Shown here piece after piece: positions 4,401 through 56,744 of a stretch of 64,000 nt of DNA. How positions within the stretch are numbered: position 1 is the stretch's first letter; the number at the start of each line of letters is the position of its first letter. A program made the translations under genes and the position numbers. The stretch comes from Folioceros fuciformis (Eukaryota): contig JBNGIO010006013.1 of NCBI GenBank assembly GCA_049999805.1, positions 102,336-166,335 of the forward strand. The letters run 5' to 3'. The notes under the pieces were generated by a model that was not told the origin of the DNA, ran no database searches, and saw only the letters and a list, made by a program, of their open reading frames with translations.

Positions 4401-5769
4401 AATTTTGAATTCTTCCCATTTTCATTCATTGTTGGCTTTATCCATTATAATAAAGTATCACCACAAGTTGCAAGCTTTTATTGTCTCCTTTTCTTTGTTC
4501 TCTTTCCAAGTTTACATGCTCAAACTTGTTGTATGTGGTCCTCTACAACTCTAGCTCTCCTTGAAAGTATACATTGTGGAAAGAAGCGTTGACTCTTGTT
4601 GTCCATTTGTGATTTGTTGTTCATTTGGGATATCTACCTAGGCAATAATATCATGCTGTTCATTTGATTTGTTGTTGAGTTTGAAGATCTTCCTCAACAA
4701 TAATGTTATGTAGACCATCTATGATATGTTATTGAGTTTGGAGATCTATCTTGGCTCCAATATGTTGTTGGCTTATTAAAATTGCTCAAGGATTGTCAAA
4801 ATCTTTGTGCATAGCATCTTCTTTGCATTCTTAAGCAAGACATCCTTGAAAAGAGGAAGATATGATGTATCACCCAAATCAAATAGAAATTCCTTGCTCA
4901 TCTTTAAGAAGCCATGATTTTCTTTTGGATCCCATTGAAATTCCTTGTTTATCTTAATTTTTTCAACAATATGGCTAGCCTCATCAATAGCAATCTTGAG
5001 ATTTTTGGGTTAAAATTGGATTAACATCCATATTAGGTACTGATGACGAGCCAATTCCTAAATTTAGTTTTTACGTGGTGACCTTTCCTTGGCCAATATT
5101 GTTGCCACTTTTATAAGAATTCAATGTTGGTGGGCTTTAACCTAGTATCACAATAGGTTTGGGTTGGCCCACTTCTAGTTTGCTGACTTGCCATGGCATG
5201 GGGTGATAGCTTCAACATTTTTGTCTTCTTTAGATTAATGATCTTGGTTTTAAATTTTGACTTGCCATCATGTCTGCATCTTGTCTTGCGGTCGTGTCCG
5301 CCATCATTGAACGTAATAGTATGGTTGTTGGTCTTGTGTTTAGATCATGACTTGCCATCATGTTACATTGTTGAGGTTGCCTTTTGGTTGCGCCTGCCAT
5401 CACTAAATCCAAAGGTTTTGTGATTAGAAATGCCATCATGTTTTGCTACGGTTGAGGTGCCATAACATATGGTTGATCTTGAGGTGTTGTTACCGTTATA
5501 TGTTGTTGTGGTTGAGGTGTCATAAAGTATGGCCGTGCTTGAAGTGTTGTTGTCATCATGTATTGTTGCTCTTGAGGTGCCATAATACATGGTTTTTTGT
5601 GAGGCGTTGTCAAGTATGTTTGAGCTTTTCCTTGTTGTATCCCCCATCATGGTTCCCTTGATAATTATTCCTCTTGTATTATGGGGTTGCCTTATCATTG
5701 CAATTTAATGTTGCATTGTTATTACTTGCCATGCATCATTGCAGAGGGAATCTTGTTCGTCCGCTATTG

Positions 5770-6500
5770 CCACATCCCTGTTCATGGTTGTACCCGCATC
5801 CTTGTTCTTGGATCATTGTTCTTGGTTGTAGTTGTATCCCTGTTCATGGTTGTACCCGCATCCTTGTTCTTGGATCATTGTTCTTGGTTGTAGTTGTATT
5901 CTTGTTCATGGTTGTACCCGCATCCTTGTTCTTGGATCATTGTTCTTGGTTGTAGTTGTATCCCTGTTCATCGCTGTCGCCGCATCCTTGTTCTTGGATC
6001 ATTGTTCTTGGTTGTAGTTGTATCCCTGTTCATCGCTGTCGCCAAATCCTTGTTCTTGGATCATTGTTCTTGGTTGTAGTTGTATCTTGGTTGTAGTTGT
6101 ATCCATGTTCATCGCTGTCGCCGAATCCTTGTTCTTGGATCATTGTTTTGGGTAGTAGTTGTATCCCTATTCATCGCTGTTGCCGCATCCTTGTTCTTGG
6201 ATCATCGTTCTTGGTTCTAGTTATATCCCGTTCATTGTTGTTGCCGCATTCCTGTTCATCCACAATTGCCGGATCATTGTTCTTGGTTGTACTTGTATCA
6301 TTGTTCATGGTTGTAGCCGCACCCCTATTAATCGTTGTTGCCACATTCCTTTTCATCGCTATTGCAGCATTTCTACTCATGGTTGTTGCTGCAACCTTCT
6401 TCATCGTTGTTGCCACATTCCTATTTATTATTGTTGCCGGACCCTTGTTCATCGCTGTTGCCACATTCCTATTCGTTTACTATTGCCNNNNNNNNNNACA
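5770..6500. repeat. 62-bp minisatellite, degenerating at the 3' side
   Basis: Unit ~gtacccgcatccttgttcttggatcattgttcttggttgtagttgtatccctgttcatggtt. Near-identical ORF starts recur at 5832 and 5894. Confidence 0.9.
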
Positions 6501-6694
6501 TTCCTATTCGTTTACTATTGCCACACCCTTGTTCATCGCTGTTGTTGCATCCCTATCCCTATTCTTATCCATTATAATAAACAATCATTGTTCGAATATC
6601 CATTATAATAAAGTTGCAAGCTTTTGTTAATTCTTTTCTTTTGTTCTCTTTCCAATTTTCTATGCGCAATCTAGCGCTGTGATCGGATGAACCC

Positions 6695-7010
6695 GATGGA
6701 GAATGAAGAAACCAACAAGTCTCCTTTACAATACACACTATGGAAAGAAGCCGACGGAGATAGAAGAAACCAACAAGTCTTCTTGAAAGTATACTTTATA
6801 AGAAGAAGTCGATAGGGAAAGAGAAACCAACAACTCTTCTTAAAAGTATACTCTATGGGAAGAAGCTAATGGAGAAAGAGGAAAGCACCAACTCTCTTTG
6901 AAAGGATACTCTATGGGAAGAAGCCAATGGAGAAAGGGGAAACCAACAACTCTCCTTGAAAGTATACATTATAGGAAGAAGCTGATGGAGAAAAAAAAAA
7001 ACCAACAAAG
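6695..7010. repeat. ~58-bp degenerate tandem repeat
   Basis: Recurring gaaaccaacaactctccttgaaagtatac...ggaagaagc, about 5-6 copies. A related single copy lies at ~4550-4590, and 4441-4510 resembles 6599-6660. Confidence 0.8.
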
Positions 7011-7200
7011 TAATAAGGAAAATGTCTTCATTGTTAAGCACAAATAATAAGAATAGTATAATGATTGTTGAAAGTATAGATGATGGGAAGAAGTTGATGC
7101 AAAGAAGAAAGACCAAAAGAGTACTAGAGCCTCAACGTCAGCATACTTCTGGATGGGTAAAGAACTCAAATATGATGATAAACAGCAGCCCAAGTATTAT

Positions 7201-7743
7201 TTATAAGATTTGAGGCCATGGGGTCCGTATATACACAAAGTTATGTACCCTAAATTATAAGACTTGCAGCGCATGGGCTCCTTATATACTCAAAGTTACG
7301 TCTCTTAAATTATAAACTTGAGGCCCATAGGCTCCTTATATACTCAAAGTTATGTGCCCTAAATTATAAAACTTGTGGCCCATGGGCTCCTTATACACTC
7401 AAAGTTATGTCTCTTAAATTATAAAACTTGAGGCTCATAGGCTCCTTATATCCTCAAAGTTATGTCTCTTAAATTATAAGGTTTGAGGCCCATGGGCTTC
7501 TTATATACTCAAAGTTATGTACCCTAAATTATAAGGCTTGAGGCCTATGAGCTACTTATATACTCAAAGTTATGTCCCTTAAATTATAAGATTTGAGGCC
7601 CATGGGCTCTTCTATACATAAAGTTATGTACCCTAAATTATAAGACTTGAGGCCGATGGGCTCCTAATATACTTGAAGTTATGTACCCTAAATTATAAGA
7701 CTTGAGGCCCACTGGCTCCTTATATACTCAAAGTTATGTACCC
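7201..7743. repeat. 55-bp tandem array, about 10 copies
   Basis: Unit aaattataagacttgaggcccatgggctccttatatactcaaagttatgtaccct. Confidence 0.95.
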
Positions 7744-8531
7744 ATAAGGAAACTGATATAATTAAAAATTCTAGCGCAAAGCTTACCTAAAGACTTCCTC
7801 CCTTCCCTTAGCAAGAGTGGAATTTAAACAAAACACGTGCAGGCCAGGTACAATAAATGTTGGTTTGAGTGTCAAGCCCCTTCCCTTAGCAAGAGTGGAA
7901 TTAAACAAAACACGTGCAGGCTAGGTACAATAAATGTTGGTTTGAGTGTCAAGCAAGTAAGCTCCATGCAGAGGCATGTTTAGCAGAGCAGGTTACTAAG
8001 AGCATGAGAAGCATGCAGCCCTAGGAAAAGTGTGTGGTAGTGAATAATAGCTTAAGGCTTAAGTAAGTGCTTAAGTAAGTAGTTGCTAAGTTAGTGACTT
8101 GAGCTTGTGTACAAAAGGGGACCTAGCCAAGGGCTAAAGAAAGTTCAGTACAGTGGGGTTGAGATGAGTATCTTCTCAAAGCCTTGAGAGCACTGGGTGC
8201 TTGGGCTATGCCTTGAGAGCATGTGTTGCTTGGGCTGTGAGAGCACATGAAAGGTGCTGTGAAGGAGCTGTGGGAGGAGGCCAAGAGAAGGGAGAGCTAA
8301 ACTCCTAGCTTAGGCAAAGATGGGGAGTTCTCTCTAGCCCTCCAGCTCTGTATGTTCTTGTTGACTCGTGATTTGAATAAAGAGCAGCAGCAAGGGTGCA
8401 GGCTGCGAGTCCTCCTAGAAGAGGAGGGCGGGCTACTTGGAGGCCTAGTGCTGTGTCCGGTGTTTAAAACTGACACTTGCTTTGGCTTCTAACGGCGTGG
8501 TTCTGCCCCACCCCGTTGAAGGGGGTGTTAC
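7744..8531 (+). mobile_element. Possible solo LTR containing a 78-bp tandem duplication (7800-7953)
   Basis: Ends in gggggtgttac (LTR-like terminus) and has no coding signal. The duplication is directly visible; the termini are imperfect. Confidence 0.35.
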
Positions 8532-10470
8532 TCTATAACTGGTTACGTCATCTTTGAATGTCTCTTATGGGCACATGCAAAGTGGAATCCATAAAATCCA
8601 AAAGAGCGGGAGCTTTCGCGTTGTAGTGGCTCAAATATAGTGTGTCCTAAGCAAAATAACATATTTCCGGTCATTGGTGTACAACGGGCATGTCGTGGTG
8701 TTGGTTTCAAAGTTGTGGCTATGGTCTTATCGGGAATTAAAATATGGGACAACGACTGGACCCTAGTCTCTCGTACGCCAACTACATGTCCTGCACAGAG
8801 CACCGTGTGTCATTATCAGCGAGACCAAGTTGTGGGACTGGTCACTAGCAGCTGTCCTGATCCGCTCACCCAGCTTGAGCTAGGGCGGCTTCTCTGGCTC
8901 CAGCCAGCGGGGCCCCTGCGCCTGCCTTTGCCGGCCCCGCTGCTCCTCTCCACATCTGCTGGTGGAGCGTGAGCTTGGTGGACGCAACAATCATGGCATT
9001 GGCCTGCCCTGCTGCCTTAAATGCGTCTCCTGTTGGAGCCTCGTGAAGAGCGTCGGAGTGTCGGGGAGTTTTGTGTGCAGGAGCCCTGCAAATTGCGGCA
9101 CGGGGACCAGTCTGCGACCCCTCTCTCCCAGCGACGCACAATCAACGTGACTCAAGCCAGACAGCTGGTTGTTGGAGAAGTCCATTGCCTGCTTCAGAAG
9201 CTGGTTTGGTTTGGTAGCCACTGGACTTCTCCAGCAACCACCTTTCTGGTTAGTTTTGAGATCTCCATGTGCTCGTTGCTTCCTACGACTCCCGACCCGT
9301 GGCCGCCGGATGTGATTTGTGTTTGCCGCCGTAGCCCGTTTTGATCGCAGATCTTGCTCTCTGTCGAGGCTGCAGGCTGAGCAGCCTTGGTCTCTTTCGG
9401 TTTACCGATCTCCCTCGGCGGGAGCTGTTCGGGCGCTATCGCAGCGTGGATGTCGCAGATTCTACTTATGCTGGCTAATTGAGTAAGTGAAGGGCAGGCA
9501 AGCCTGTGTTTGTTCCGCACTGAATTGTCTCCACTCCCAGATCTGAGAACTGGTCCTGTAAATTGTGTCGACGGCTGCTCCTCTCATTTACGCCACTGTT
9601 ATGATGCATCTGAAAAGACGCTTATCATCTGCGTTCCTGACTCGTAGCCTCAGATCTGGTAGACAGCGTCTTTGAAATAGTCGACATGGGCGTAACTCCA
9701 CGCGTAATGTCGAACAGCACGTGCCTCCAGTTAGGGGCTTGTCCGGACGTCACTCGTCTCTCGCACTCATACGAAACGTTTCTCTGGGTGTCGGACTTGC
9801 TCACACTTCCGTCTGCGTTTTAGGCGACAAGCCGCCCATCGAAGGCACGCAGGTCTTTAAAAGAAAGGCGGATGGCGAAGGGAGGCAGGTTAGAATCTTC
9901 AGGGTTTTATTGTACATGACACTCTCCAAATTAGTGAGAGACAAGCGCGACGGCCGAAACACTTTTGCCATGGCATAACTGAACAAGCTACGTCGTAGGA
10001 ACGTTAAAAAAACTCAAGTCTTCACGTCGGGAAAACTTGAGCAAAATAGGTTCATGTAAGAAAGCTTGCGCAAGCTAGCTACATAGGTAGTCCAGGTGTT
10101 AGAACATCCTCATCCACAGTACAGCGCACTGCATGCCAACCTCCCTCCAAAAAAACGAAGTCGCATCAAATCCTCCCATTTCCCATATAAGCGAAGGAAG
10201 GACTGAGGGTCGCATCGTTGAAAAGGACCAACAGCTATGCAGATAATCTGTACAGAGATGAGAATGCTATATCTAAGCTGACCGAGCCAATAGTCCCTTG
10301 GAACAAATAAGGCTGGCACATCCCGGTGTACAAAGGCTGTGCCAAGACCTGGTGCCAGTTCAGAACTCCCTGTCTCAAGTAACAATAAGCATCAGCTCCA
10401 CCAACCACCTGGCCATAATGATGAAACGAGTACTCCCTGAAACCATGCTGAAATCACCACCTTTCCTGGC

Positions 10471-11850
10471 TCAGACTCCCATAACCGCTCTCCTCCTCTT
10501 CGCCACGGGAGGGGAGGCTGGGGCCGACTGAAGACCAAGATCTGGAACAAGGAAGGCATCGTCAAGCAATTCTGGGACCAGAGCCATATCCTGCTTCCCT
10601 TTGCCTTTAAGAGTGCCGTTCACTCTACCCGGCCTACTGGACAGTCCTGAGGCAGCAGTAGACAGCTGCGGGACTTCGTGAAGAGATTCGGCATACAACT
10701 GCTCATCGAAGAGGCTAAGATCTGCGGTCCAGTCGAGGTCTCGAAGATTTGGCACATCGGCCTGCACAAAAACAACAGACACCGAAACACACAGAAAAAC
10801 CCGATTCCTTAAGAAACCTTCAGTCAGCGCAGAAACCCGTCCTAAAATCGCATGATATCTGAGAGAAAGAATGGACGTCCACGGACGATAGGAAAGCAAG
10901 TTATTCAAGGCGTGGGGCAGCAGAAAACGGGAAGGGAGACACCTACCTTGGATGAGCAAACGTCTCCTAAACTGTAACCATCTGCCAGCTCCGGTATGTT
11001 AAGCAGCTCCTCCACATGCCAGCCAGGCACACCCTCGATGAGGTACTCGGATATGCTGCTCCTTCTAGCAACACCTCCATTCCCGCCCTGGCCGTACAGC
11101 TGGCCGTAGGAAAGGGCAGAATAGGCGGGCCTCGAAAGAGACCCACAAGTCCCGCCACCACCACCGCCGCCAACAACGACGGCAGTCCTACCCGTGGAAA
11201 CCCCGCTACCAGCCGGCTGCGGAGCAGGAGGCGGAGCAGGCGGCGGCAGCGACGCCTTGGGCAATTGGTACATCTTTCCACCGGTCACTGACGGACTCGT
11301 AACGGCTACAGGCAGAAGAGGCAAAGAATGGGAGTGCGACTGCGAGTGCGACTGGGAATGAGAGTGCGACTGGGAGTGCGAGTGGGAATGCACTGCATCC
11401 TCCTGAACTGCGTCCCCGGGCCTCACCTCGCCCCGTATGGCCTCCAAGGCAACTCTGGTCCCGGGCACCAGGAACCGCTGGTGGTTGGACGAGAGGTGGT
11501 TCGCGGAGTGGATAGACACATCGCACTCCCGACACAAGAGCGCACGATCCTCCAGGCAGAAGAAGAAGCCATTCTTTTCCTGCACACCAGCCCACACCAG
11601 CGTAAGCTTCCGCTACTACAGACGTAGCCCATCACCACAAACAGAAACTCGTCCCCACGTGCACCACCTGGCAAATGTCGCAGCGAGGCGAGTCTCCGAC
11701 GTTCCCGAGCAACGACACCCGGTGATGCTTATTGGCCAACTTGTTGGCCGCATGCACCCGCAGGTCGCAGTCCACGCAGAGCGCGGCCTCGTCCGCGCAG
11801 CACATCACCGAGGCCGGAGCCCGCTCGCACACATCGCACTGCACTCGCAT
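10471..11850 (-). CDS. BBX: Double B-box zinc finger protein, BBX group IV (STO/BBX21-24-like)
   Basis: Exons 11850-11668, 11579-10947 and 10761-10471, all GT-AG and in frame. [21 protein letters not shown] and [14 protein letters not shown]-boxes, SSISEYL...PGWHVEELL motif, VPDLG motif and KRRR NLS. Confidence 0.93.
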
Positions 11851-15477: not shown

Positions 15478-18400
15478 CTACTTCCGAATCATGTTCCTGA
15501 AGTCTTCGTTTGACTTGGGGGGTGAATCATCCGCAGGCTTCCCTTTACCAGCACTCCAACCCAGGGGTCTGATTACTGCGCGAGGGACTGCAAACGTATT
15601 GCTGCCCTTGAGCTCAACATGGCCTCCTCGTCGGTGGCCCACGATGTTACTAGCCCCACGGCCCCTCACACCAAACAAAGACGGAGCATCCTCACTCTCC
15701 TCCTTCCCAGGCCGGCCTAGAAAGCCACCACGCCTCTCACGACCACCTCTGCCAGCTCCAGATCCTGTTCCACCCCGACCATCCATGTCAAACGCCATGT
15801 TTGCCATTCTCACCGAGCAGATACTTGCCACAATCTCACAACCTGACCTTTCTCCTTTGGATTGGAGCGTGCAATACTGATCCGCCGTCCCATAAACTGC
15901 TCTCCGTCTTTTGCAATGGCAGACGATACATAGTCATCAGTCTCGAACTCCACATATGCAAATCCCTGACGCAAAGTCGAGCGAGGGTCATTCCAACCGC
16001 CTGAGGAGACCGAACTCTCAGGAACTCATGAAACGAGGTCCTGCTCCTTACCCGGGACCTTCCCGTGCTCTTGTCCTTAATAAGCCGAACATCCTTCACA
16101 CCTCCGCTGGACGCAAAGAACTCTTTCAAATCCTCCTTCCCCGTCTGCAACGTCAACAACACAGGCAGGTGATGTGGTGGGACTGCATGGTGCCATAGAC
16201 GACGACAACACCCTCCTCTAATCCAGCAAGCTCAGTGGCAAAGACTCTAGCACTCTCCACCATCTTACCCACCTCAAATCGGAGGTTTTTGACAAACACA
16301 ACGCACTGCTCTATACCATCCGCAACGTCTGCAGAGGACACTTTTTGTTTTCCAGTGTTGGCGGCAGCCGTTTCCTGCTCCCCTGATCCCAGCTCCTCGC
16401 CACCCATCACAATGTCCTGCTGCTTCGATGCATTATTACCCTTGCTATTGTCTGCTCCGTCGACAGTTTCACGTTTGGCAATTTTAGGACGCTTCTTAGG
16501 GACAGTATCTTTCTTGAGAACAGTTTCTCGATAGCCGGGTCCACGTTTCCGTTTTGCGGCATCCGCCCCTGAATTGCTTGCAGGAGATTTCTTGCCTAGT
16601 GCCAACTTCCCATCGGTGTAGCCGTCCTTAACTCGTTGATGCAGTGCTGCGGCTTTAGATTCTTGTTGAGATAACATTGCCTTCACTTCATTGACACGAG
16701 GTCCTACCTGTATATCCCAGGAAAAATCCATCCAACATGAGAAGTCCTGACAGTTCTGGCATTTTCTCAAACTGAAACAAGGGAAAAAAGTTTACACCTT
16801 CAGCAGTGCTCTGTCATAGTCCTCCAAGGAGCCATGCTCTCGCTCAAAACGCAGCCACGCATCACACAAAATCTGGTCAAGAGCACTGAATATGTGTGAT
16901 CAGCTCAGACTGGGCAACATAGCTTAAAGCTATCAAAAGCTGGGGGCACCCCATCTCGCTGGCCATGACTACTACAGGCAACTGTTCATAAAAACAGTTC
17001 AAACATACTGCATGTCACTAACCTCAGTTCCCTGATTTTCAAACCGTCTGCTGTAGCACCTTTTGTAAATTGCCCTTGCTTCCTCCAGATTATTCAAGGC
17101 AATCTCCATGGCAATGTACCCTTGCCAAGCTTCAACCATCCGGCCACTGCTTGACAAGAGATATCAAGGATCATCACAGAACCCATCAGTCACCCACATA
17201 ATTTTCACGAGACTGCAGCATCTCATTAGCTTAAGTGGTTACTTTCCAGCTTCAGCCACAGACCTGGATTTCAACAAACTTTCCCATACTCCACGAGCTG
17301 CAGCCAAATCCTTGTTTGCCCTTGCTTCCACATCTGCCCAATAAACATGGACTTGCAGCAAGCGATCCCAAAGTTCCGGATAAGGGGATAGAAAGCTCAC
17401 AGAGCGCTGCACCACATCAACAGCTGCGTCAACTTCCCACAGCCTCGTGCCGGTAAATTCCGAGTGTCATGTTTAAGATGAAGGATTAACTTACTTCAAA
17501 TATTTCACGCAACATTGCCACATCATGATGGCTGGGTGACGCTTTCATCATTTGCCGCCGTAGTCCATCAGCACGTGTTAAAAACAAATCCAGATGCTGC
17601 ACACAAAAACACAGCAATAAATTGAGGCCATTCTAACCCACCAGCCTCATGGTAACATCTCTCCAACATCATAAGCGCACCTAGCTGCAATGCAGATCAA
17701 GAAGGCAATACCACTAGTGGAGATTCAAATGAAATTTGCACGCACTGTTCAAAAACCTGCACAAAAAGTAAGGCATAAGCATCTGTACAACAAGAACTTA
17801 CACGAAGACATCGCATGTAAGCCTAATTATGTACACCAGACCCAGCGTCATGACCATGTTTCGTGCTGACAAACAGGAATCATACTGAAGATATCTGAGT
17901 CTCTGGAAAAGAGTGACGCTCCAGAGCTAAGAGGTACTTGCTCCATAACGTGCTCACCCATGGGCAATTGCGCACAGCCCTAGCATATACAGATATGATG
18001 ATTGACGCAACCTGCAAATGTCGCACAGCGACTAGGGTTCATAAGCGAAGCACACGGTTCACAAAGTGTTTTACCAAATAAAAATGTAATCTAGCACATT
18101 CAGCTGAATGTGCTACATTCTTTGTCCTACAACAGTTTACGGTGAAGTCTGTAGCATAAATCGGTGCCTCTTCCTTTTTTTCCGTGGACAAAGCCTCATG
18201 CAACAGTCAAGTCCAGCAGTACCTTCAGGTTGGTCTCCAAGTACTCTGTATATTTCGTCCATAGTTCGGCAGTCACTGGAAACACTGCCAGGGCCCTTTC
18301 ATAGAGGATTTGCACGCGTGATGGGTCACAATCGCCATTTTCTTCTGCCACGATGTATTCCTGGATATGCCGACCAAATGGATCATCATGAGATCTCCAA

Positions 18401-19837
18401 ACTCTCAACACAGATAGCCCTCAGAGACGTAAGGGCAGCAATTCCCCTGCTGAAATGTATTAAAAGGAGACAGTGAATAAGAGCAACATCTAGTCTGTAC
18501 CATGAAATCCTTTAGGAGCTCTCCATCTGCAAGCTTCCTATCAGCCACCCTTTCCTCAAAGGGTTGACGACTCTCCAACACCTGGGCAGCCTTTTTATAT
18601 GCAATCACCACACTGGACGGAACACCAGATAGTTCATCACCGTCAGCCCCGACGACATTCCCTTGTTCCTGCTCCCATGCTTTATACTCCTCAAGTGTCT
18701 CTTCATGGTTGGCTAAAGGAACTGTAAGCTCACGATGAAATAGGCTCCGAACACACTCTGTCTGCTTCAACTTCACCTGTCATTCCAGGCAAAAAAAATA
18801 AACAGCGTGCATCTAGGATAACAGAGTTGTTGCGGAGGTGTTGGCAGAAAGATGTGACCAATTTGTCATACCTCCGCACTGCAGTCAGCTAATGCCAGCA
18901 AGACAGCCTGCTCAAATTCACGATAGGCTCCCCAAACTTTCACACCCTCCGTAATATGAAGACCTGCGGCACTAAGAGCCCGTTCAAACAGTTTCCTCAT
19001 TTTTGTGAGGCCCTCTTGAGAGCATTGTGCCACACTCACATCGTGCTCCTCCACAAAGTCTAAGTATTGCAGCCATAAGGGTGTAGACTGCATGACATCC
19101 CAAAATATTCCTTTAATACGGACACGAACATGAGCAGAAACAAATCTACAGAAGGAGCTGTCTCACATTGTAAAATAATTCAAACAGCCTGCTAGCTATC
19201 GCATCCCAGAAAGCAAATAGCAAAGATCAGCACCAGATACTCTGAAACGCCTCGTTCATACAAAGCTTCCACTGCCAAGAAATCTTCGGGGCTGCAGGAA
19301 ATTTCAAACAGGATGAGGAAGGTTATTTGCGAACGTCAGACATTTAATCGCCGAGACAACCCCAGACGAAATCCCATCCATAAGCCGGGAAAGGGGCTTC
19401 TAGGACCGCACTCGGACGCAATTCGAGCTTCATCCGACGTCCACTCCAGCCACAAAGTAGGAATGAGAGGGAAACGTGCACTCATAGCCTCCCTGGCAGC
19501 CCTCAGCTTTTCCAGCAGGCCAGCTTTTCTGAGAGCGGCAATGTACTGCAACCAAGCAGGTGCGAGTCAAGCGATGTGACGGCAAAATTGCAACACACCT
19601 TAGGGAATCGCAATCCGAACACATGCTGACCTGTACGTGAGCCTCATAGCTAGTGGGATCTTTGCTGAGAACCGTCTCCAGCTGCTCCACCAGCTCTAGG
19701 CTGGCTTTGTCATCCTCCTGATCAGAATCATCGCTCGAATCCGCATCCGTCCCGGACTCATGCTCTCCCCCCGCCACCTTGCAGTCCAGGTCGGAGCTGG
19801 CAGCGTCCATGGAAACGTCCTTGTCCTCAGAAGCCAT
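15478..19837 (-). CDS. SART3: SART3/Prp24 U4/U6 recycling factor (HAT repeats, RRM, LSm-interacting tail), multi-exon
   Basis: HAT-repeat exons (LWLEW, LFERAL, LYERALAVFP), RRM (VFVKNL...VRLIKDKSTGRSR) and C-terminal PKSNEDFRNM. Internal exon boundaries not all resolved. Confidence 0.9.
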
Positions 19838-19990
19838 CACTTACTACTGTCTCTTAACGACAAGGGCACTGCGCGGGAGTGAGAATTTGGATGGGAGGGT
19901 TTTAGCCCGTTCAACCACGTTAGGGCGCAAGAAACGATCGTTTGAGAAGAAATTCTAAGCTCAAAGATCCCACATGGAATGTCGATAACG

Positions 19991-20748
19991 ATGGCTTCCC
20001 TCCTTCAGTCCAGGTTGGTGTCCCAGCTGAATACCAGGCGTCATGCGATGGCGTTTCTTCACCGGAGGTGGTTCAAGGAGAAGGTGGCCCCGGCGCAGTA
20101 CCTGTTCAAATGGATCGACATAGACACGAGCCACATGCCTCCGCCACTGCCTTCCGACGTGCACTTCTTCGCCGACTGGAACGCTTACAGGGTAAGACGA
20201 GAAGAGATGGGCCAACCGTGCTTCATTCCATTCCAGCAAGCTGTGGGTGGTGTGTGGGCGTCCGCTTACACTGCAGTGGGTGACGGGTACAGGTGATGTG
20301 TAAGTTCCACATCGAGGACGACGAGTGGGTCGCGCGGAGCCTGCACGACGGCAGGATGCATGTGGCGGTGGTGTGGGGGCCTCACGAATGCCACCTCATC
20401 CCGGGGTGGCGGCGATACATACCTGACTTGGACCAGAAGTCGGCGGCGTACGAGATGATGCAGGACTGCGGGTTCGACACTCCCCACGATTGGATGTCTG
20501 CCATAGCCTTCCAAGCGGCACTGGCAACCCAGTCCGAGGACCCTCGGGCCCAGCCTCGCGCTTTCCTCACGGCCAACAGGCGCTTCTGGAAATTCGTCGT
20601 GAGGGAGTTCTGCCGGCAGAGCAAGGACGCGGATGTGCCAGACCTGCTCTCGGATCCAGCTCCTAATCCCCTCTTTTGCCGCCTGTTCGTGCCCACCGAG
20701 TGGGGTACGGAAGAGGTGAAGCAAGAGTGCCCTTGGGCTGTGGAGTGA
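19991..20748 (+). CDS. Orphan protein (~218 aa) with a possible mitochondrial presequence
   Basis: Two ORFs join in frame through a predicted phase-0 GT-AG intron at 20192-20292. GC-rich third positions. No family recognised. Confidence 0.55.
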
Positions 20749-21867
20749 GCTCGTGGGTTTCATCATCTGAGCTGGGATTCACACCATCCACAGATCTGTG
20801 CTGTAAGGACTCCCAGGTCGCTCTTGGTCATCGCTCCGGGTAAGTGTCTGCTTGTAATCTGATGCATTGGGCCCATACCTGCACTTGGTCGCAGAGATCA
20901 TGGAGCCGGGTTTCAAGCTGTTCAGTTAGCTTGGGCCGGGCGAGCTTCAGCTCAGGAGGAGGATCCTCCTGGCCAGAACGAAGAAGCCGGATTCGAATGG
21001 TGTCAAATTGGTTTCCTCTCCCACTGCATACCACACTACCTACATATTTTCCCTACATACCCTTAATAACATAACAAGGGCCAAAACTGAAGGACGAACT
21101 ACTTGGGGTGTGTTTGAGTTGATTGTCGGGGGTGTCGTTGTGGGGCAGGCAGCGGATGGAAGACGAGGATACGCTTATCTTTCCTAAAGTAGAGACTAGC
21201 CCCAAGTTAATCTAAGCGGGGTCCAGCAGCAACTCTGCTTGAAGTACGAACAATTCTGTAAGCTAAGGTTTTCTTTCCCATGCCTGTGTCGGGAGCAAGT
21301 ATTCCAGGGAGGAGCTCTCTGCCACAGATCATACCATCACATTATCCAGCCAGGGAATGTGGAATGCAAGATGTTTGGCAATCTACGCTACCCGTCAACA
21401 TGGAGATTTAGCATGGCCCCCTGACTTCCCAGACGCAGGCCCCCGGATGGGCTTCTCAGTGAGCGCTAGGGAATGGCTGCTCGCTCTTGCTCATGGCTCT
21501 GGTTTCTGTACACGCGAAGTCACTGTGTTCAAGACCGCTTCCGAGCTACCTACTTCAACAACACATACTCGGCCGATGTTTATTCAGAGTGTTTTTACTG
21601 TAGGAGTGTTACAATTTATTTACATATCTATCTGGCCCGTGTACAAGTCTAGTGTATCAGACAACTGGAAGGATGGTAGTCATCTTCTTCGCGTTGGCTA
21701 GCTGCTGGGCCTCCAGGCTCCTGTTAGGCTGAGCTATCTCTCAAGTCTGTCTGCACGGGCGGGATTGCTCCGGTACTTCGTACGTAAGATTATGGAATTA
21801 AGGGGGATCATGTGCTGGAATCTGCAACGACGAACCAGCAGGCCTGATTTAAACTCTGCCAGGATCC

Positions 21868-24819
21868 CTAACCAGTGTTCTGCATCCCAGCAGCAATACC
21901 CTTCATGGTGAGAATCAAGGTGTCGATCAACGTGTCCTCCAGCCCAGGAGGATACTGGGTGGTAGAATTGAGCGGCACCGGGTCAGCAGCGGGCGGGGCC
22001 GAGGCCGAGGCTAGGTCCGCACCATCAACTGGATTCCGGACACACACCCGTGATTTCTCGTCACGCATCCTCTTCAACGTGTACGCCTGCTGCACGTTGA
22101 GGGCCGTGATGTAGGGGTCCCTGAGCCGGAGCCTCTGCTTCAAGGTAGGATTTCCGGCAAGGATATCCCCATGTCCCGCCACCTTCAAGAGAAGCTCCTT
22201 GGCCTCGTCGTACTTGGCCCGCATCGTGGCACCCAACTCATGCAGCTCATCCGACACCAGCAAATTATCGTACAAGGTAGCGATCCTGGGGTCCCCCTTG
22301 GCGAACACCATCTCAATTAAGTCGATGGTAACTCTGAAGAACGGCCATTCTTGGTACATGCTCCGCAATGTGTCAAGATTGCGAGGGCTCTTGTCCAGGG
22401 CCGTCCTGAAGGCCGCCCCGAGTCCCAGCCACACAGGCAAATGGAACCGCGTCTGCGTCCATGCGAAAATCCACGGGATCGCCCTCAGCGACTCGATGCC
22501 TCCGCTGGGTCTCCGCTTGGAAGGTCTGCTCCCGATGTTCATCCGGCCGAACTCCAGCTCCGGGGTCGCCGCCCGAAAGTACTGAACGAACCTGGGGTCC
22601 CCGAAAACCAGGGCCCGGTACTCCCCCGTAGCCTCAACCGCCATAGCATCCATGAGCGCCCGCCACTCTGGCCTCGGCGACACTGGGGGCCGCATCCCGT
22701 GCTCCAGCGTCGCGGCTGTGAACCGCTGCAAAGTCCGGAAGCACAAATGCTCTTCCCCGAACGACTGCTCGATCACCTCGCCCTGGATGGTCACCCGCAG
22801 CGACCCGTTGATGGTGTCCGGGGGCTGCGACAGGATAGCGAGATGCGTCGGCCCGCCTCCTCGGCCCACCGTCCCGCCCCGGCCGTGGAAGATGGTGAGC
22901 TTCACACCATACTGCTTCGCTACATTCACCATGCTCTCCTGCGCCTTGAACATGGCCCAGGCCGCGGTCAGCCTCCCTGCGTCCTTCCCGGAATCCGAGT
23001 ACCCGATCATCACCTCCTGCTGCCCGGCGATCCGCGCCAGGTACCAGTCGCTGGAGAAGAGACGTTCCAGCGACGCAGACGCCGACTCCAAGTCCGCCAG
23101 CTTCTCAAACAACGGCACTACCCGCAGCGGCCTGGGCACCCCGCACTCCCTTTGCAGCAGCTCCACCACCAGCACGTCGGACGGCGCCGTGGCCATGGAT
23201 ATGACATACGCCCCGAGGGAATCCCGAGGAAGCTTGGCCACCGTCCGGATAGTGTCCAGCACGTCCTTTATCTCCTCCGTCATGGGCAGATCTCCGCCGA
23301 ACAACGGCCGCTTCCCTCGCAGCTCCGCAAGCAGCCATTCCTGCCGCTTCTCCTCGCTCCAGCCCCGGTACGAGCCCAGCTCCAGGTGCATAGTGATGGC
23401 GTCCATGACATCCGTGTGCCTGTCCGATTCCTGCCGGATGTCCAGCTTCACCAGGGACAGCCCGAAGCAGGCCACCTGCCGGATGAAGTCCAGCAGGCTC
23501 CCGTCAGCGATGGCCTTGTCGCCGGTGGAACACAGGGAGCGGTAGCATAGCTCCAGCGGCTCCAGGAGCTGATCAGTGGATGAGAAGGTTTCATTAGCCG
23601 GGATGTCGGACTTGCCTGCAGCCAGGGTCCGGCGGATGTACTCCCGAGTGTAGTAGAGCCTGGCTCGCACGTCGCCAAGAATCACCCGGTAGGGTTCCCC
23701 AGAAGGAATTTGCTTCCAGAACTCGATGTAGTCCGTGGGGTCCTTCTTGAAGACGCCCTCCAGGGATGCCACCCGGGAGCGAAGCTCGTCGCTGCACCGC
23801 CACATGGAGAGCTCGAACATGAGGTTGTCCAGCTGCGATAAGTGGAGATTGATGGCCATGAGGCGCGCGAGGAGGCAGACATCACGGGTGACCTCGGGCG
23901 TCACCCTGGGGTTTCCGTCCCGATCCCCTCCCATCCAGGAGGAAAATTGGATGAGCGGGACGTGGTAGGGCAGTCGCTCCGGCACCCCGATGCGGCGGAG
24001 AGCCGTGTCCACCCGGCGGAGGAAGCGCGGAAGTCCTTTCCAGATGGTCTCGTGGAAGTAGCTCATGCCGGCGCGCATCTCGTCTTGCGGCGTGGGCGGG
24101 GTGCGTCGGATCTCGTCGGTGCGGAAGGCGGCCTGGATCTCTCGCTGCAGCGCCTCGGACAGCTCTTGTCGCTCGTGCGTATCTTCCTCCCCGTCCTCGG
24201 CCCGCGCGGATAGGCTAGAGCGGTGGAGCTGGGACAGGAAGCTGCGGATGCGGCCGTGCTTCTGGAGGAGGGAGCGGCGCACAGACTGCGTGGGGTGCGC
24301 CGTGAGCACCAGGTCCACCGTCTGGTTCTTGAGTGCCTCGAAGATGTCCTGCGGGCTCCGACCCAGGCGGAGGAGCGTGGCAAATGTGTCATCCAAGTCC
24401 GACTCCGTCAATGCTGAGCCCTCGTCCAAGATGCCACCCGAGCGAGTCTTGAGCGCACGGCGACGGAGCGCAATCTGCACCTGCTCCGCCAGGTTGCCCA
24501 GGTTCAGCATGTGGGACAGGGAACTGGCCACCACGATGGAGACTCCCGGTTCCAGCGCGCCCATCACCTCCCCGAGCAGCTGCAGGATACGTGGGTCATT
24601 TGTCTGATTGTATTGGCCCGACAACTCGTAGCACCAGACCACCACCTCTTGCACCTTCTCCCCATGCAGCTCCCGGAGCACGTCCAGAAAGCGGTCGAGC
24701 AACAACCCCTCCGATTCCACCAGCGTGTCATCCTCCGATACCTTCTTGGGTGCCAAGAGCCGCATCCGCGCGTTCATGCTAGACGACTTCTCCAACCCCG
24801 CGTCCGACCTCATCGCCAT
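21868..24819 (-). CDS. PPC: Phosphoenolpyruvate carboxylase, plant-type, single exon
   Basis: Uninterrupted ORF with [54 protein letters not shown] and C-terminal MQNTG. Start codon uncertain (24819, 24813 or an upstream ATG). Confidence 0.97.
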
Positions 24820-24902
24820 CCCCACGTCCTTGCACCCGATGCAACCTGCATACATGCCGCTCCGCCTCTTGCCTCCTACAACCCTTGCTCTCCCTCTCCA
24901 GT

Positions 24903-25636
24903 CCAGATGGTTCAAACAAACACACAGCAATGATTTAAGGCCCTGCTAACTCAGCAGGTAACATCTCTCCAACATCGTGAGCGCACCTAGCAGCAATGCA
25001 GATCAAGAAGGTACTACATCTCACTGATGATGACTCAAATGCAGCCTGTACAAAATGTGAGGCATAACCATCTACACGACAGGAACCGACACACAACCTT
25101 CGCATGTACGCCTAATCATGTTCACCAAACCCAGCGACGTGAAAATGCTTGGCGATAACGAGAAGGAAATCATACTGACGATATCTGAGTCTCTGGAAGG
25201 GAGTACCGCTCCAGAGCTAAGAGGTACTCGCTCCATTATGTGCCCATCCATCGACAGGTGCGCTCTGCCCCAACGACGCAGACAGCTATGATGATTGAAG
25301 GAACATGTAGCACGACGCACAGTGACTTTAAACCCGGTGAACAAGCACAAATCTCACACAGCCTTCGACATGAGAAAAATGTGATTGAACAGAGACAGCT
25401 CTTCTGTAGGTCCTCACGTTGGTCTCTAAGTGCCTTGTGCATGTCGCCCATACTTGGGCAGTCACTGGAAACACTACTGCCAGGGCCAGGGCAGAGGGAA
25501 GGTGAATCCAAGATAACACGGTTGAGCAGGTCTGTTCGCAGAAAGGCGCTACCCATCTGTTCATTCAGGCCTCTGCGCTGAAGTTGGCAAATGCCAGCAA
25601 GACAGCTAGCTCAAATTCACGATAGGCGTCCCAAAC
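24903..25636 (-). pseudogene. Decayed partial genomic duplicate of SART3 (~17590-18937, with an internal deletion)
   Basis: Collinear matches, e.g. ggtaacatctctccaacatc (17651/24957), gatatctgagtctctggaa (17890/25180), cagtcactggaaacact (18270/25459) and aatgccagcaagacagc (18891/25590). Intron sequence also aligns. Confidence 0.9.
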
Positions 25637-26063
25637 AAACCCTTCGTTCGCCCAAAGCTTCAACTAGTTGACCTATATCTAAGGCTGGAACCAGTCTTGG
25701 TTGGTTAGTTGCTTTCGCTGTGACCTAACCTCGAATCACGAGATCTGTAGCAACTCAGAATTTGCATTTGCTTTCACTGACATAATCCGGATTTGGCGAA
25801 CTAGTCTCGAGCAGAGAAATCGAGATGCGTCACACAGGCAGGCTGTTCAAGTTTTCCCCGTTCTCCATGTCGTCCAATGTCTTCTCAATCTGTGACAACA
25901 AGAACACAGATTGAGGAGTAGCTGATCGGTACCCAGAAAGCTTTGGAAGGGCAGAACGTTCCTTCACCGATTTGGGACTTGAGTTATGAAAAACATGCAA
26001 ATTTGACACCCTCCACCGTGAGGAACCAGAAGAGGACTGCATTTGCGTTTTCGGACGGGCAGG

Positions 26064-29000
26064 ATGGCATACAATATTGGTGTCAAGCCCCTTCCTCTTG
26101 ATGCTTGCATAGGATTTGAAGGAGCAGTGAACTCCGGATTGATGCTGCATCCCAATGGAACCACGATGCTCTATCCTCTGGGAACCACCATTGTCCTTCG
26201 CAACATTGTAACGTCCTAACATCTTCTTGCCAAGATTGCATCGGAGAAGTGGGTATGAGCAGAATGTTTGTCCAAACCTCGGTGGAAAATTTAGCATCTC
26301 GTAATTGGTGCAGGCCGATATGAAGTCGCAGGAGTTTCTAATGGGGCACACAAATCGTGTGTCCTGTTTGGCTGTATCAAAGACGGGGCGTTATGTCGCG
26401 AGTGGACAGGTTTGTTTATATGCACCCGTCGACCCTAGGTGTCGCTGTGATCGAACACAACGCCCAAAGATTTTGGCCTGTGCTCCACACCAGCTTGAGC
26501 TTGCAAGTCTGCACTGATTGTCCGTGGCGGATCACAGATTGCTCATATGGGATTTGCAGCCGACATTATTATCTGGGACTTTGAAGCTCGAAAGCTTATC
26601 CAAAGGTTAATTCTTCACAAAGTAAGGACTAATGCGAAACCACTGCAATTGCAGCGTGACGTTGTGCATCACATAGTTTTTGTTATCTGTAGTTTTGTGA
26701 ATTAGGCATTTGAAATTTCCCTTTGTTTACTTGCAGTGCTTGCCTTATGCCGTGGTAACAATGAACAGGTGAAGGTGCAAGGTGTCAGCTTTTCCCCAGA
26801 CGAGGAGTTTTTGGTATCTGCTGGCGGCCAGGATGACTTCAAGCTGGTAGTATGGCATGTGAAAACAGGAAAAGCTGTTTGTGGAAGTCCTGTGCCCTAT
26901 GATCATGCGCAATGTGTTACGTGGTACACCAATTCAAGTACGCAACTAATCACAGCAGGAGCTTTTAAACTTCTTGTTTGGAGATTTGACTGTCCCAATA
27001 GAAAGGTGCTGCCTGTGGAATGTCACTTGGGTAGCTTCAAGCGGATCTTTCAAACTTTGGTTAGTGTGAACAGCATGGCATGGTCATGTTTCTGTTTTCC
27101 GGACCAAAAGGCTGTTGAGCGTGATGTAGCATGAAACTGTAAGTAATCAGGGTTTCTGATTCCCTAAACAGCAAGTGGATGCGAATGACGAGTTTGTGTA
27201 TGCTGGTACACGAACAGGAGACATTCTGCAGGTTTGCACAATTTTTCCTTTTCAGAATCCTTGGTCTGAAGATGTTCTTGCTTTGCCAGTCATCATCTCT
27301 ACTGCCTTGAGAAACGTAGCTCAGTTTCAAGACAATTTTTTCCATCGATCGCGGGTTGGTGTGGGGGAGCAGGTCAGCTTGGGGCCAAAGCTCTTCAAAA
27401 ATCATGGACCCAAAATTGTCATTGGTCAAGGTGTGTTTTGCACAGCAATGACGCCAGCTGGTGATCTGGTAGTGGGTGGAGGGAATGGAACTGTTACCCT
27501 TTTAAGAACTTCAAACATGAGGAGTATTTGCAGCACAAAAGTTCAAGGGGGTGTGACGTCAGTGGCAATTACAAACACTCGTCCAGGAGATTGTTTCGAC
27601 GTTTTTGCTGGAACAACTGTCTGCAACATTTATCTTGTCAGGTGTGTTCTGTTTTCCTTCACTGAACCGCGTCAAATGTGAAAGGGGTGAAAACAGTTGC
27701 AACTTAGAACGTCTTCCACATTCTTGAAAGAATTGAGCAATGCCGTGTAGCAATTTTTGTTTGTCATCTACCAACGCTGGCAGATATGATGGAAAGACCA
27801 AAACAATGATTTCAAAGCTGCTGCAAACTTGCCATTTTGCAAAAATCAATGATATTGCATTTCCAGCTGGTTATAGTGAGGTTTTTGCTACTTGCTCCCA
27901 AGCAGATATCCGGATCTGGCATTCAAATGAGTTTCGCTTGCTCCTAAGAATTCAGGTCTGTGCTGCCTTTTGATTACTCCCGTGAGGTGTCGCGTGTAGC
28001 AGGCTTAGCGTAGAGGGGTGCTTCGCACACTTCCTACTTGGAGTGTGTCTCATCTGTGCTTGATGTGCGGCTATACTTTTTATGCAGTGTGAAAATATTG
28101 ACTCACGGGACAAAAGTTCACTAAATGAGGAGTGCTACTGTTTGGCATTTATGCCTGATGGGAAGAGTCTGATCAGTGGTTGGAGCGATGGAAAAATCCG
28201 AGCTTTTGGCCCCCAGTCAGGCAATCTGCTGTACATGATACATGATGCACATCCAGAGGTTGGCTTGGTTCGTGGCCGAAATTAATCAGTGCCCCTGGTC
28301 TCCGTACCCTGACAGTGTGAGACAAGGTTTTGCAGGGGGTGACTGCTATTTGCGGGACTTCTGACAGTGCACGCATTGTGAGTGGAGGTGTTGAGGGTCA
28401 GGTAGTCCACTATCCAATTGTTCACCCGCGGCACAGACTAGCAGTCACAGAACTTCGATCCTTCTGTATCACCAAATTTGCCGTGGTTAAGCCATGTTGA
28501 CTTGAGGTTGATTTTTTATTTTTTTTGTGACGCACCCCTAGGTTCGGGTTTGGAAGATTGGACCATATAGTCACTGCATGATAGCATCGATGAAGGAGCA
28601 CAGGGCCCAAGTGAACTCTGTGCAGGTAGACGCAGTTCCAGCTGCTGTATAGCTTGCTTGATGTTATGCAGGTTTGCAAGGATACTGACAACTGGAAACA
28701 ACGTAGGTGAGGAAGAATGATAGCGAATGCGTAAGCTCAAGTAGCGATGGTTCTTGTATTGTGTGGGATATGACGGTTGTCACTCTCAACCTTCCAATCA
28801 AGAAGTTTCAACTGGATTTTCTTGTTCTGTACATGGTGCCTTACTAGGTTACCTATTCAGTAGTGTGATATGGTCACATGCATGGTGACAGAGGTATGCC
28901 AGAAATCAGAGTTTATATGCATCGACATTTTTCAAAGCTATTTATTACCACCCTGATGAAAGCCAACTTCTAAGCACGGGGACAGATCGAAAGGTGAAAG

Positions 29001-29494
29001 AAGACCTTTCCTTCGCTGTTGAGTAAATTTATGCAGCCCTTATGTTTCTCTGCTCCATTTGTAGGTGACTTACTGGGATGCTTATGACTGCCAAGCCATT
29101 CGAGTGATAGACGGATCGCTGACTGCAGAGGTAAACGATCTGAACATCAGTCCCGACGGGGAGGGTTTTGTGACTGGAGGAGTCGACAAAGAGGTGAAGC
29201 TTTGGAACTATGACGAAGGGCACTGCTACTACATTGGTCGCGGTCACAGTGCGCCAATAACAAAGGTGATGCTTCCCAACGAGACTGCTGAAGTTCGCGA
29301 CTCCATCCTCGAGCTCCTTCATGTTAAAACCAATATTGGTCGTCTGGTTGCAGGTCAGAATCAGTCCCGATCAAACGCGGGTTGTCTCAGTTGGAGAAGA
29401 GGGGGCCATCCTCATTTGGGATTATAAGCCACCCAAATCAAGCTCACCTCCAGAGGAAAAAGCACTTGTGAAGTCTCCTCGCTCTCCAAAGTGA
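26064..29494 (+). CDS. CFAP52: Cilia- and flagella-associated WD40 protein 52 (WDR16/FAP52), multi-exon
   Basis: N-terminal LDACIGFEGAVNSGLMLHP..LYPLGTTIV, QEFLMGH, FATCSQADIRIW, SGWSDGKIRAFGPQSG and TYWDAYDCQAIR. GT-AG introns. Confidence 0.9.
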
Positions 29495-29976
29495 TCTCTC
29501 TCGCCTTTCTCATGGTCAATTCATACGCTCCGACAGTCCGTAAAGAAAACCGGATCTGCGAAGGTATCAGCGGGTTGAGGTATTGGACGTCTGTGGCTGT
29601 GACGGGACGTCACTGCTGTCAGCTACTCCTAGAGAAATCAGTCCATCTCATCGTTATCTCACGTTCACTGAGAAGAAATATTTTCTTGAAGTGCTTTTGC
29701 CTAAGAACTGACAGAAAGAATGAGAAATTAATGATCTCGTGCAGTAGGATCATATCTTCATGATCTCACGCTGCGAAAATCATGTTCAGTCCTAGTTCCT
29801 ACATCTTTGCGCTGGAAACCTCGTTGCCACCCCGTGCACTTGTAGGAGAGCACCACACTTCCAAGGCAAGACAAGGTGAACTTGCACACACATCTTGCTG
29901 TTGGCGGGGCGCCGATGAGGATTACCCCTTGCGTTCGCCGATGGTATAAGCACCAGGTTCCTGAGATAGCTAGCAC

Positions 29977-33849: not shown

Positions 33850-34860
33850 CTTTGTTGTATGGACTTTGAAAAGTCCATGCCCAATGAGTCTCAAGAGTCT
33901 CACTCTATCGGCGGCAGTCAGCGAATGCTCTTTGCAAAGCAATGGATACATGTTGTTGAAAGAGGGCTACCACATAGAAGAGAACATCATTCCTATGACT
34001 AAAATAAACATTGAGTTTCAACAGGGCTATCACATAGAAGAGAACATCATTCCTATTGACTATAATAAACATTGAGTTTCAACAGGGCCACCACATAGAA
34101 GAGAACATCATTCCTATGACTATAATAAACATTGGGTTTCAACAGGGCCACCACATAGAAGAGAACATCATTCCTATAACTATAATAAACCTTGGGTGCA
34201 TTCGTTCATGAACCTAGAAAAGTCCTTGCCCATGGCCCCACGAGTCTTAAGAGCAAGAGGATGAAAATATGGCTTGTCTCACAAGGAAGAAAACTTATGG
34301 ACTTTTGATGCTTCCACAAACCTATTCCCTCTAGTGAAAAAAAAGGTTTGTTGTAAGTGAAACTCCATTGCGCAAAGTATATGGACTCTCCCTATATAGA
34401 AGAAACCTACACTCCTTAACCATTAAGAACGTGACATCTCGAAGTTAAAAAAAAGGTTCGCTGTAAGTGAAACTCCATTGCGCAAAGTATATGGACTCTC
34501 CCTATACAAAAGAAACCCACACTCCCTACTAACCATTAAGAACGTGACATTTCGAAGTGAAAAAAAAAGTTCGCTGTAATAAGTGAAACTCCATTGCGCA
34601 AAGTATTTGGACACTCCCTATACAAAAGAAACCCACACTCCCTAACCATTAAGAACATGACATCTCGAATTACATCATGGTTGGCAATACGTTACCGCTG
34701 ATGGGAAAACATGCCAAATGGACCTTGGGAAAACATGTCAAATGGACCGTGTATCGACAATGACAACCCCACAACTATATGTAGAGATAGAGAGAGAGAA
34801 AAAGCTAAGGAGAGAAAAAGCTAAGGGGTGGGCCAAACTTAAGAAAAATCTCATAGTCTA
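33850..34860 (-). mobile_element. 3' remnant of a CRE-like non-LTR element with internal tandem repeats
   Basis: 34200-34860 aligns with 56800-57440. 60-bp x4 repeat at 33963-34195 and ~110-bp x3 repeat at 34340-34670. Confidence 0.65.
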
Positions 34861-56076: not shown

Positions 56077-56744
56077 GGCTCTTGTTTGTGCTGTCACACA
56101 ATCGCGCGGACCATATGAACCTCCATGTGCAAGTACTTATACGTTATTAGGAAGAAGCGTATCTGTAAGGTTTAATATGTAAAATCCCCAATGCAGCGAT
56201 ACCCACATTTTATTTACCACTTAGTAGACAATGGGTTCGCTTCGACATTGTCTCTATAGTTTGGTTCTGCTCCAAGTTCATGTAATCTTGGACAGCCCAC
56301 ATGTGCTGATGCCATGTCTTCAAAAGTTGATATGCGAACTTATTCAATTCTTATTAAATATCTAATATTTAGATATTTAATAGATCAATATAAAACGAAG
56401 GATCTTCATATAGACATTCTATTCTGTTAATGTGCAGAGTGTATTTTCTATTATTGAAAAAGAAATGAGAAGTCCATCTACTCCAAAGATTAGAGGAACA
56501 ACCCGAGTAGAACCAAAGGGGCTAGTGAAAGGGGTATTGGCCCCTTCGAATATCATTCTCAAAAACTACCTACTACTCCCAAAATATCATGATGTAGAAA
56601 ACTACCTACTACTCCCAAAATATCATGATATAGAATAACAAAAGGTCTATCTACCACCGATCCCGAAGAAGCTACTTCACTTGGGCTTGTTGCTATCCTA
56701 AAACCGCATTGGCCAATGCTGTTTGTAAAGGAATGGATACGCGT

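Follow-up and report, generated by a model that had tools for sequence, protein, structure and literature searches.

Intron-free plant-type phosphoenolpyruvate carboxylase genes in the hornwort Folioceros fuciformis

The subject of this report is a gene for phosphoenolpyruvate carboxylase (PEPC) in a 64,000-nucleotide stretch of DNA, here called the window, from the hornwort Folioceros fuciformis (assembly GCA_049999805.1, contig JBNGIO010006013.1, positions 102,336 to 166,335). The gene encodes an intact plant-type enzyme without a single intron, and the assembly holds only one other full plant-type PEPC gene, C4458, which is likewise a single frame. Across land plants a structure of ten exons is regarded as near-fixed for plant-type PEPC, and all plant-type PEPCs here break it. 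Both the enzyme and the mechanism in general belong to kinds already known; what is unusual is that the only plant-type PEPC genes of a genome are free of introns, and the surprise lies in the loss of introns at the level of the lineage rather than in the window copy itself. The introns were probably lost early, through a cDNA, and the intron-free gene was later duplicated into the window. The two genes are as follows (GC3 is the G+C content of third codon positions).

21868..24855, minus strand: plant-type PEPC coding sequence, 995 amino acids from the first ATG, 0 introns, GC3 0.82.
C4458:12618-15593: second plant-type PEPC, 991 amino acids in a single frame; 887 of 999 aligned residues (89%) are identical to the window PEPC.

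The initial annotation, made from the sequence alone, had described an intact intronless plant-type PEPC at 21868 to 24819. The gene was confirmed by its frame, by a Pfam PEPcase match of 1075 bits over residues 52-995, and by spliced alignment, which placed 0 introns in it. Its extent required correction, since 24819 is the second in-frame methionine, from which the protein would have 983 residues; the true span is 21868-24855 on the minus strand, and its first ATG is also present in the C4458 paralogue. In 200 shuffles of window positions 21001-26000 the longest open reading frame was 339 amino acids. Out of 8000 scored proteins the best 120 are headed by the Marchantia plant-type PEPC at 73% identity; identity to the 120 plant-type PEPCs is 70-73%, and the protein aligns over its full length to solved PEPC structures. 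The catalytic motifs and QNTG end that had been reported are present. All 17 motif patterns were matched, two of them, the phospho-serine and xxxYIEFWK motifs, by loose patterns only, with substitutions. The catalytic, malate/aspartate-site and C-terminal motifs are intact, including the QNTG tetrapeptide where bacterial-type enzymes have RNTG; the roles of the motif residues, other than those at positions 780 and 890, are presumed.

In vascular plants, plant-type PEPC genes have 9-11 introns; those of moss have 10-13, apart from one with 4 (PMC8435749), and 10 exons are the norm among 167 PEPC genes (PMC7177731). The initial annotation's figure of about nine introns was borne out by spliced alignment, which recovered 9 in each of three plant genomic loci (L032-L034). 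Across all nine canonical intron sites the codons are colinear, with no indel, in both the window PEPC and C4458. A moss-like locus (L031) retains three intron sites, all of them angiosperm sites, and lacks two of five. Since nine introns are gone without a scar from both copies, their loss would have been mediated by cDNA and older than the duplication; cDNA-type removal is supported in that nine of nine sites are clean. A 45-nt GC-AG "intron" placed in C4458 was dismissed as an error of the aligner, being in frame; moreover, a contig of run X1, described below, keeps the longer loop. GC3 is even along both genes at 0.81-0.82, compared with 0.55 and 0.49 in intron-rich PEPCs. This high, flat GC3 fits a long intron-free history, but it is not a specific signal, because other single-frame genes of the window have GC3 of only 0.55-0.57. 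No intron-free plant-type PEPC is a member of the two surveys in their available portions (PMC8435749, PMC7177731). In the literature covered, which excludes most subscription papers, no title or abstract opening that was found speaks of an intron-free PEPC or of hornwort intron loss. Hornwort annotations probably already hold such single-exon PEPC models, unremarked.

The assembly searched comprises 7240 contigs with 87 Mb in total. The window protein (15 of 15 candidates scored) and a Ginkgo PEPC (16 of 16) returned the same set when used as queries, and with neither was an intron-bearing plant-type PEPC found in the assembly. Exons of the remaining PEPC classes, short ones included, were recovered with both at about 40-60% identity. 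The initial annotation had pictured a retrogene beside an intron-bearing parent. That picture is not supported, as both searches were negative and the sister copy likewise lacks introns; within this assembly all plant-type PEPCs are intronless, the finding which the annotation itself had set against its proposal. The other PEPC sequences of the genome are these.

C4005:6217-6752 and C4704:5053-5329: broken PEPC fragments, copies of C4458.
C6010, about 5550-10890, minus strand: intact bacterial-type PEPC with 19-20 introns.
C6356, about 795000-801800, plus strand: third, divergent PEPC class with about 20 introns, an RNTG end and an N-terminal extension.

A tandem repeat array borders one of the two fragments, and an LRR-like piece is fused to the other; the fragment on C4704 reads uninterrupted through two ancestral intron sites. 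By eye, the N-terminal extension of the third class is ACT-like in appearance. The PEPcase domain likewise starts late in AANG007402 of Anthoceros angustus and in three Spirogloea proteins (supplement of PMC8784020). In X2, a run from a related species, the orthologue of the bacterial-type gene is the deepest PEPC contig (958 vs. 289-366, a hint only), which recalls Isoetes (10.1101/2021.06.09.447806).

C4458 is the conservative copy and the window gene the derived, later duplicate. In a protein tree of 20 sequences, with no hornwort besides the pair, the branch lengths are 0.024 for C4458 and 0.11 for the window PEPC. At the 637 columns that are at least 95% conserved in 120 homologues, the window copy has 18 copy-specific changes and C4458 has 5; at 395 invariant columns the counts are 8 and 1. 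The window copy was faster in five of six relative-rate tests, its protein evolving about 2.5 times faster. The fragments on C4005 and C4704 side with C4458 over the window copy at 40:4 and 24:2 sites. The paralogue search, comparison of exon structures and tree proposed in the initial annotation were thus carried out, and they yielded an intron-free sister copy that is the conservative one of the pair. Because this source gene was already intron-free, the lack of introns in the window gene is uninformative on its own origin. The 120 best of 8000 scored matches include no hornwort protein, and 79 metagenome loci yielded none recognisable as hornwort.

The window PEPC is under purifying selection. 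The pairwise ratio of nonsynonymous to synonymous substitution (dN/dS, or omega) against C4458 lies at 0.09-0.15: it is 0.145 at a dS of 0.36 by NG86 over 987 codons, with 0.10-0.26 in five blocks, and 0.088 at a dS of 0.53 by maximum likelihood. On the window branch omega = 1 was rejected with three of three outgroups (p 0.007-0.017). All three indels between the copies are in frame. In simulations of neutral copies the frame was kept in 132, 19 and 0 of 2000 at 3%, 5% and 10% divergence.

Run X1 was taken as RNA from the canonical splice joints in neighbouring genes; its contigs give neither level nor strand. One contig matches window positions 22206-23029 with 0 differences, a separate paralogue contig has 88 differences, and other contigs have loose ends that match the flanks of C4458. 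Contig depth was 21 for the window copy and 251 for the paralogue, which is a hint and not a measure of expression. Window-type cover is missing from X1 at about 21938-22205, 23030-24330 and 25973-26706, and contigs cannot prove absence. Among the plant-type contigs listed from X2 all are C4458-like, and no window-type transcript is evident; runs X3 and X4 come from more distant organisms and are uninformative. The claim that the copy is functional gains from both the low dN/dS and the identical X1 contig. The annotation had allowed for an unexpressed copy with dN/dS near 1; instead omega = 1 is rejected and the contig is present. A further X1 contig of low depth (about 3.8), at window 22994-23131, represents a third plant-type PEPC sequence. 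It is likelier to be moss contamination, because its motifs are identical to those of a protein of the moss Ceratodon.

The route of copying can be read in part from the edges of the window gene, where the following features lie.

24856..24905, minus strand: 50-nt leader homologous to the C4458 leader (blastn, genome search).
24902..25640, minus strand: decayed duplicate of the SART3-like segment 17589-18940, at 73-81% identity.
15478..19837, minus strand: multi-intron gene (Pfam Suf/HAT), presumably SART3/Prp24-like, from which the duplicated fragment derives.
20749..21867: 3' flank, unique and without relation to that of C4458.

Homology between the window and C4458 extends only over 24905-21866 (88%, blastn), that is, over the 50-nt leader, the coding sequence and a few bases beyond the stop codon. 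The SART3 duplicate has kept introns and suffered two large deletions, and a 4-nt microhomology, TGGA, marks its join with the PEPC leader. An X1 contig carries the 3' flank 20749-21867 together with the 3' end of PEPC and a small plus-strand gene. In four of four comparisons the flanks matched no better than shuffles: this one against the C4458 3' flank and the 3' part of SART3, and 25650-26320 against the 5' part of SART3 and the region upstream of C4458. Apart from the SART3 match both flanks are unique in the genome, in a search that skipped very common words. The initial annotation had noted no poly-A tail and no target-site duplication, and none is found after the stop codon or in the flanks. 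At the window PEPC there is no poly-A run, 3' untranslated region, target-site duplication or long terminal repeat, and age may have erased such marks; the old age that had been proposed for the copy is supported. Nor is there a terminal inverted repeat, a long flanking direct repeat or a pair of transposon ends around the gene, and the flanking inverted repeats of Pack-MULE or Helitron capture are absent. Because the fused SART3 piece retains introns, copying at the junction took place at the DNA level; for the PEPC part an RNA intermediate would be possible, because its source had no introns to lose. As to the features of a retrogene, the window copy has intron loss, inherited from an intron-free source, together with frame, constraint and transcription; an intron-bearing parent and the hallmarks of insertion are lacking.

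The proposed history has two steps. In the first, a plant-type PEPC, single in the early hornwort lineage, would have been stripped of its nine introns via reverse-transcribed mRNA. Either the native locus took up a cDNA by recombination, or a retrocopy took the place of its parent, which was lost afterwards, and the two routes have about even odds; C4458 would be the descendant of the intron-stripped gene. In the second step, later in time (pairwise dS about 0.36-0.53), the coding sequence of C4458 would have been copied into the window locus. Here DNA repair, mediated by microhomology and with template switching, is the most likely origin, and it would have copied the intron-containing SART3 piece as well. 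The resulting copy would have stayed intact and transcribed.

Gene order bears on the first step. The C4458 PEPC has as neighbours CEP44, a small Ras-family GTPase and a RING gene. CEP44 and plant-type PEPC share one chromosome-scale contig, about 220 loci apart, in Marchantia and Sphagnum; the RING gene, whose orthology is unproven, and PEPC are on different contigs in Riccia. Synteny thus gives one weak hint for loss in place (CEP44) and one against it (the RING gene), and collinearity between bryophyte lineages is limited anyway. This split, with CEP44 only loosely linked and the RING gene unlinked, is one of several points that weigh against the two-step history. The window/C4458 pair groups with Selaginella at weak support (83/77) in the 20-protein tree. 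Equal omega on both branches is not rejected (p 0.67-1.0), so that the quicker change of the window protein may stem from a raised mutation rate and not from relaxed selection. Because all three outgroups are saturated (dS 18-95), dS could not be divided between the branches, and one likelihood-ratio test was slightly negative. X1 is only presumed to be RNA, and its evidence is at the level of contigs. The assembly is fragmented and falls short of the 117-133 Mb of published Anthoceros assemblies, and could miss a gene. Finally, a loss throughout the lineage would be extrapolated from this one hornwort genome.

The alternative that survives best, though it is rather unlikely, accepts the same first step and takes the window copy as a retrocopy of the intron-free C4458 mRNA, lying in the decayed SART3 duplicate. 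According to the X1 contigs the homology begins within the C4458 transcript, and promoter and flanks are not shared; two more dispersed fragments derive from C4458, and a copia-type reverse transcriptase remnant lies within the window. However, the homology ends a few nucleotides from the stop codon, with no 3' untranslated region, poly-A or target-site duplication, at a place where intronic SART3 DNA of apparently similar age can still be aligned, and this intron-bearing piece points to DNA-level copying at the junction.

Several changes are peculiar to the window protein. The serine of the N-terminal phosphorylation motif is kept at residue 26, and that motif, SMDAQ, has become SMNAR (D28N, Q30R). 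Before YIEFWK, AKH is replaced by PTD, where KH is found in 119 of 120 homologues. A short duplication lies near the C-terminus.

21913..21924, minus strand: in-frame 12-nt tandem duplication (DTLI DTLI) before the C-terminal helix, specific to the window copy and found in 0 of 120 homologues.

This duplication, the excess of changes at conserved columns (18 vs. 5) and at invariant ones (8 vs. 1), the faster rate in five of six tests and the lack of an evident window-type transcript in X2 would all suit a young pseudogene-in-waiting that drifts near neutrality. Such a fate is nonetheless improbable, as omega = 1 is rejected, the frame is intact with every indel in frame, and the catalytic motifs are untouched; the true fragments were already broken at about 12% private divergence.

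There is little likelihood that the window gene is a classic retrogene whose intron-bearing parent is missing from a fragmented assembly. The assembly is indeed short and in pieces, and the low-depth X1 contig of about 3.8 shows a third plant-type sequence. Against this, both genome searches were negative, the third sequence matches Ceratodon and is likelier moss contamination, and the table entry for A. angustus shows a single plant-type gene (PMC8784020).

Just as doubtful is neofunctionalisation, with the isoform working in the hornwort carbon-concentrating mechanism or in a cycle resembling C4 or crassulacean acid metabolism. The changes do fall at regulatory places (SMDAQ to SMNAR, AKH to PTD). 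Ser780 and Gly890 are C4-type substitutions, and C4 function without Ser780 is documented (PMC4085955). The window PEPC retains the Ala780 and Arg890 equivalents, as Ala798 and Arg908, and has neither C4-type residue. The initial annotation, which called the enzyme non-C4 from Ala in PWIFAW and Arg in KQRLRLR, was correct as to the residues, but Ala780 alone does not exclude C4-type use (PMC4085955). The hornwort mechanism is described as a biophysical one of LCIB, BST and CAH3, and neither phosphoenolpyruvate nor malate is mentioned in the text of that source (10.1101/2024.06.26.600872).

From its sequence the window PEPC is most likely an accessory anaplerotic enzyme of C3 type, which would convert phosphoenolpyruvate and bicarbonate to oxaloacetate and be active in the cytosol. 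Phosphorylation and activator response may be altered in this minor, faster-evolving isoform.

Bacterial genes are intronless and hornworts are hosts of cyanobacteria, but a bacterial transfer or contaminant contig as the reason for the missing introns has practically no likelihood, being refuted by identities of 70-73% to 120 plant-type PEPCs vs. 42-55% for non-plant metagenome matches, and opposed by the plant phospho-serine, the QNTG end and the setting among spliced plant genes.

The proposed early cDNA-mediated loss followed by duplication has to be seen against the state of other genes. Many exons were found in the control genes, namely two aconitase-family genes, sucrose synthase, methionine synthase and a PWD-type dikinase. 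The genome is therefore not generally intron-poor. The further genes compared are listed here.

C6380:639582-644133 (L115:3583-8134), minus strand: GWD1, apparently intron-free, with frames of 656 and 910 amino acids overlapping across a 100-N gap.
L115:2096-3226, plus strand: Myb-like gene beside GWD1, one 376-amino-acid frame, which we take to be Bdp1-like.
C5225:64900-68980, plus strand: malic-enzyme tandem pair, the first unit lacking at least three introns of the second.
C1919:3950-4891, plus strand: LCIB gene with introns, above the Pfam cut-off, with a hydrophobic N-terminal segment.

The two GWD1 frames have GC3 of 0.79 and 0.67. The mean for A. angustus genes is 4.81 exons (PMC7027989). 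In moss, GWD1 genes carry 31 introns, and the PWD-type PpGWDd/e of Physcomitrella are intronless (PMC6805951). With GWD1 affected here and PWD-type genes in moss, whole-gene intron loss appears to recur among bryophyte carbon genes, and the intron-free GWD1 hints at recurrent stripping. Piecemeal differences also occur in bryophytes, as seen in the malic-enzyme pair and in L031 (two of five sites absent). Among land plants LCIB is reported only from hornworts (PMC8075897), and the membrane location described for hornwort LCIB (10.1101/2024.06.26.600872) agrees with the hydrophobic N-terminus here. Some algae carry LCIB too; its presence alongside a land-plant PEPC fits a hornwort and led to the rejection of Selaginella, which shared residues and the weak tree grouping had suggested as the source.

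The neighbours of the window PEPC, as the initial annotation stated, are mostly multi-exon, judging from splice joints and split Pfam matches. The SART3-like gene has three canonical joints and the small plus-strand gene one; the WD40 gene has two in X2, one of them canonical. Pfam matches are split in the aldo-keto reductase, fibrillin, Rad21 and B-box genes of the window. Other features of the two loci are the following.

19979..20748, plus strand: small two-exon gene, convergent with PEPC, splice joint 20190-20292, with no Pfam or Atlas match.
26320..29900 (end approximate), plus strand: multi-exon WD40 gene, presumably CFAP52-like, head-to-head with the PEPC locus.
59395-61443, plus strand: Nop52 gene, one 682-amino-acid frame.
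1454-1891, 5774-7954, 33921-34854 and 56438-57437: repeats (copia-type reverse transcriptase remnant, AT-rich tandem or dispersed repeats).
C4458:10311-11507, plus strand: remnant of a CACTA Tnp2 transposase, lying about 1.1 kb upstream of the C4458 PEPC.

One X1 contig links the small gene, the SART3-like gene and the 3' end of PEPC, suggesting overlapping transcripts.

A broader proposal is tentative: hornworts may repeatedly have swapped large, single-copy, intron-rich carbon genes for cDNA versions in place (PEPC from 9 introns to 0, GWD1 from about 31 to 0) while neighbouring genes kept theirs, the window gene being a later isoform with changed phospho- and activator regulation. If true, a whole lineage of land plants would share a mode of whole-gene intron loss that has not been described. 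PEPC and GWD1 together offer a clean test case for intron loss by reverse transcriptase, by in-place conversion or by retrogene replacement, in a haploid-dominant plant. The window duplicate is of modest importance, as a natural variant for the phospho-regulation of PEPC.

In its protein the window gene resembles the C3 or anaplerotic plant-type PEPCs, such as Marchantia MARPO_0014s0093, Arabidopsis PPC1 (PDB 8oj9) and the Flaveria pringlei enzyme (3zgb), with which it shares the catalytic motifs, phospho-serine, Ala780, Arg890 and QNTG end. Unlike them it has an N-terminal extension of about 20 residues, a 9-residue loop insertion, the DTLI duplication and altered residues next to the phospho-serine. 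In gene structure it differs from other plant-type PEPCs, with 0 introns compared to 9-13, or 4 in one moss gene (PMC8435749). A. angustus, like this genome, also carries a bacterial-type gene plus a third PEPC with an extended N-terminus, but its table gives a single plant-type gene where two are found here; in that gene, AANG013611, the PEPcase domain ends at residue 991, which is the length of C4458 (PMC8784020).

The intron-free GWD1 invites comparison with PpGWDd/e of Physcomitrella, which are also large intron-free genes of carbon metabolism in a bryophyte (PMC6805951). Family and lineage differ; here the PWD-type gene is intron-rich and GWD1 is apparently intron-free. C4458 itself resembles the orphan retrogenes in being single-exon, in having no multi-exon parent in the assembly and in its strong purifying selection (PMC3548309, PMC5803294). 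The orphan retrogenes of those papers, however, have demonstrably moved locus, and for C4458 loss in place is equally possible. The window gene is a duplicate of this orphan and not itself an orphan retrogene.

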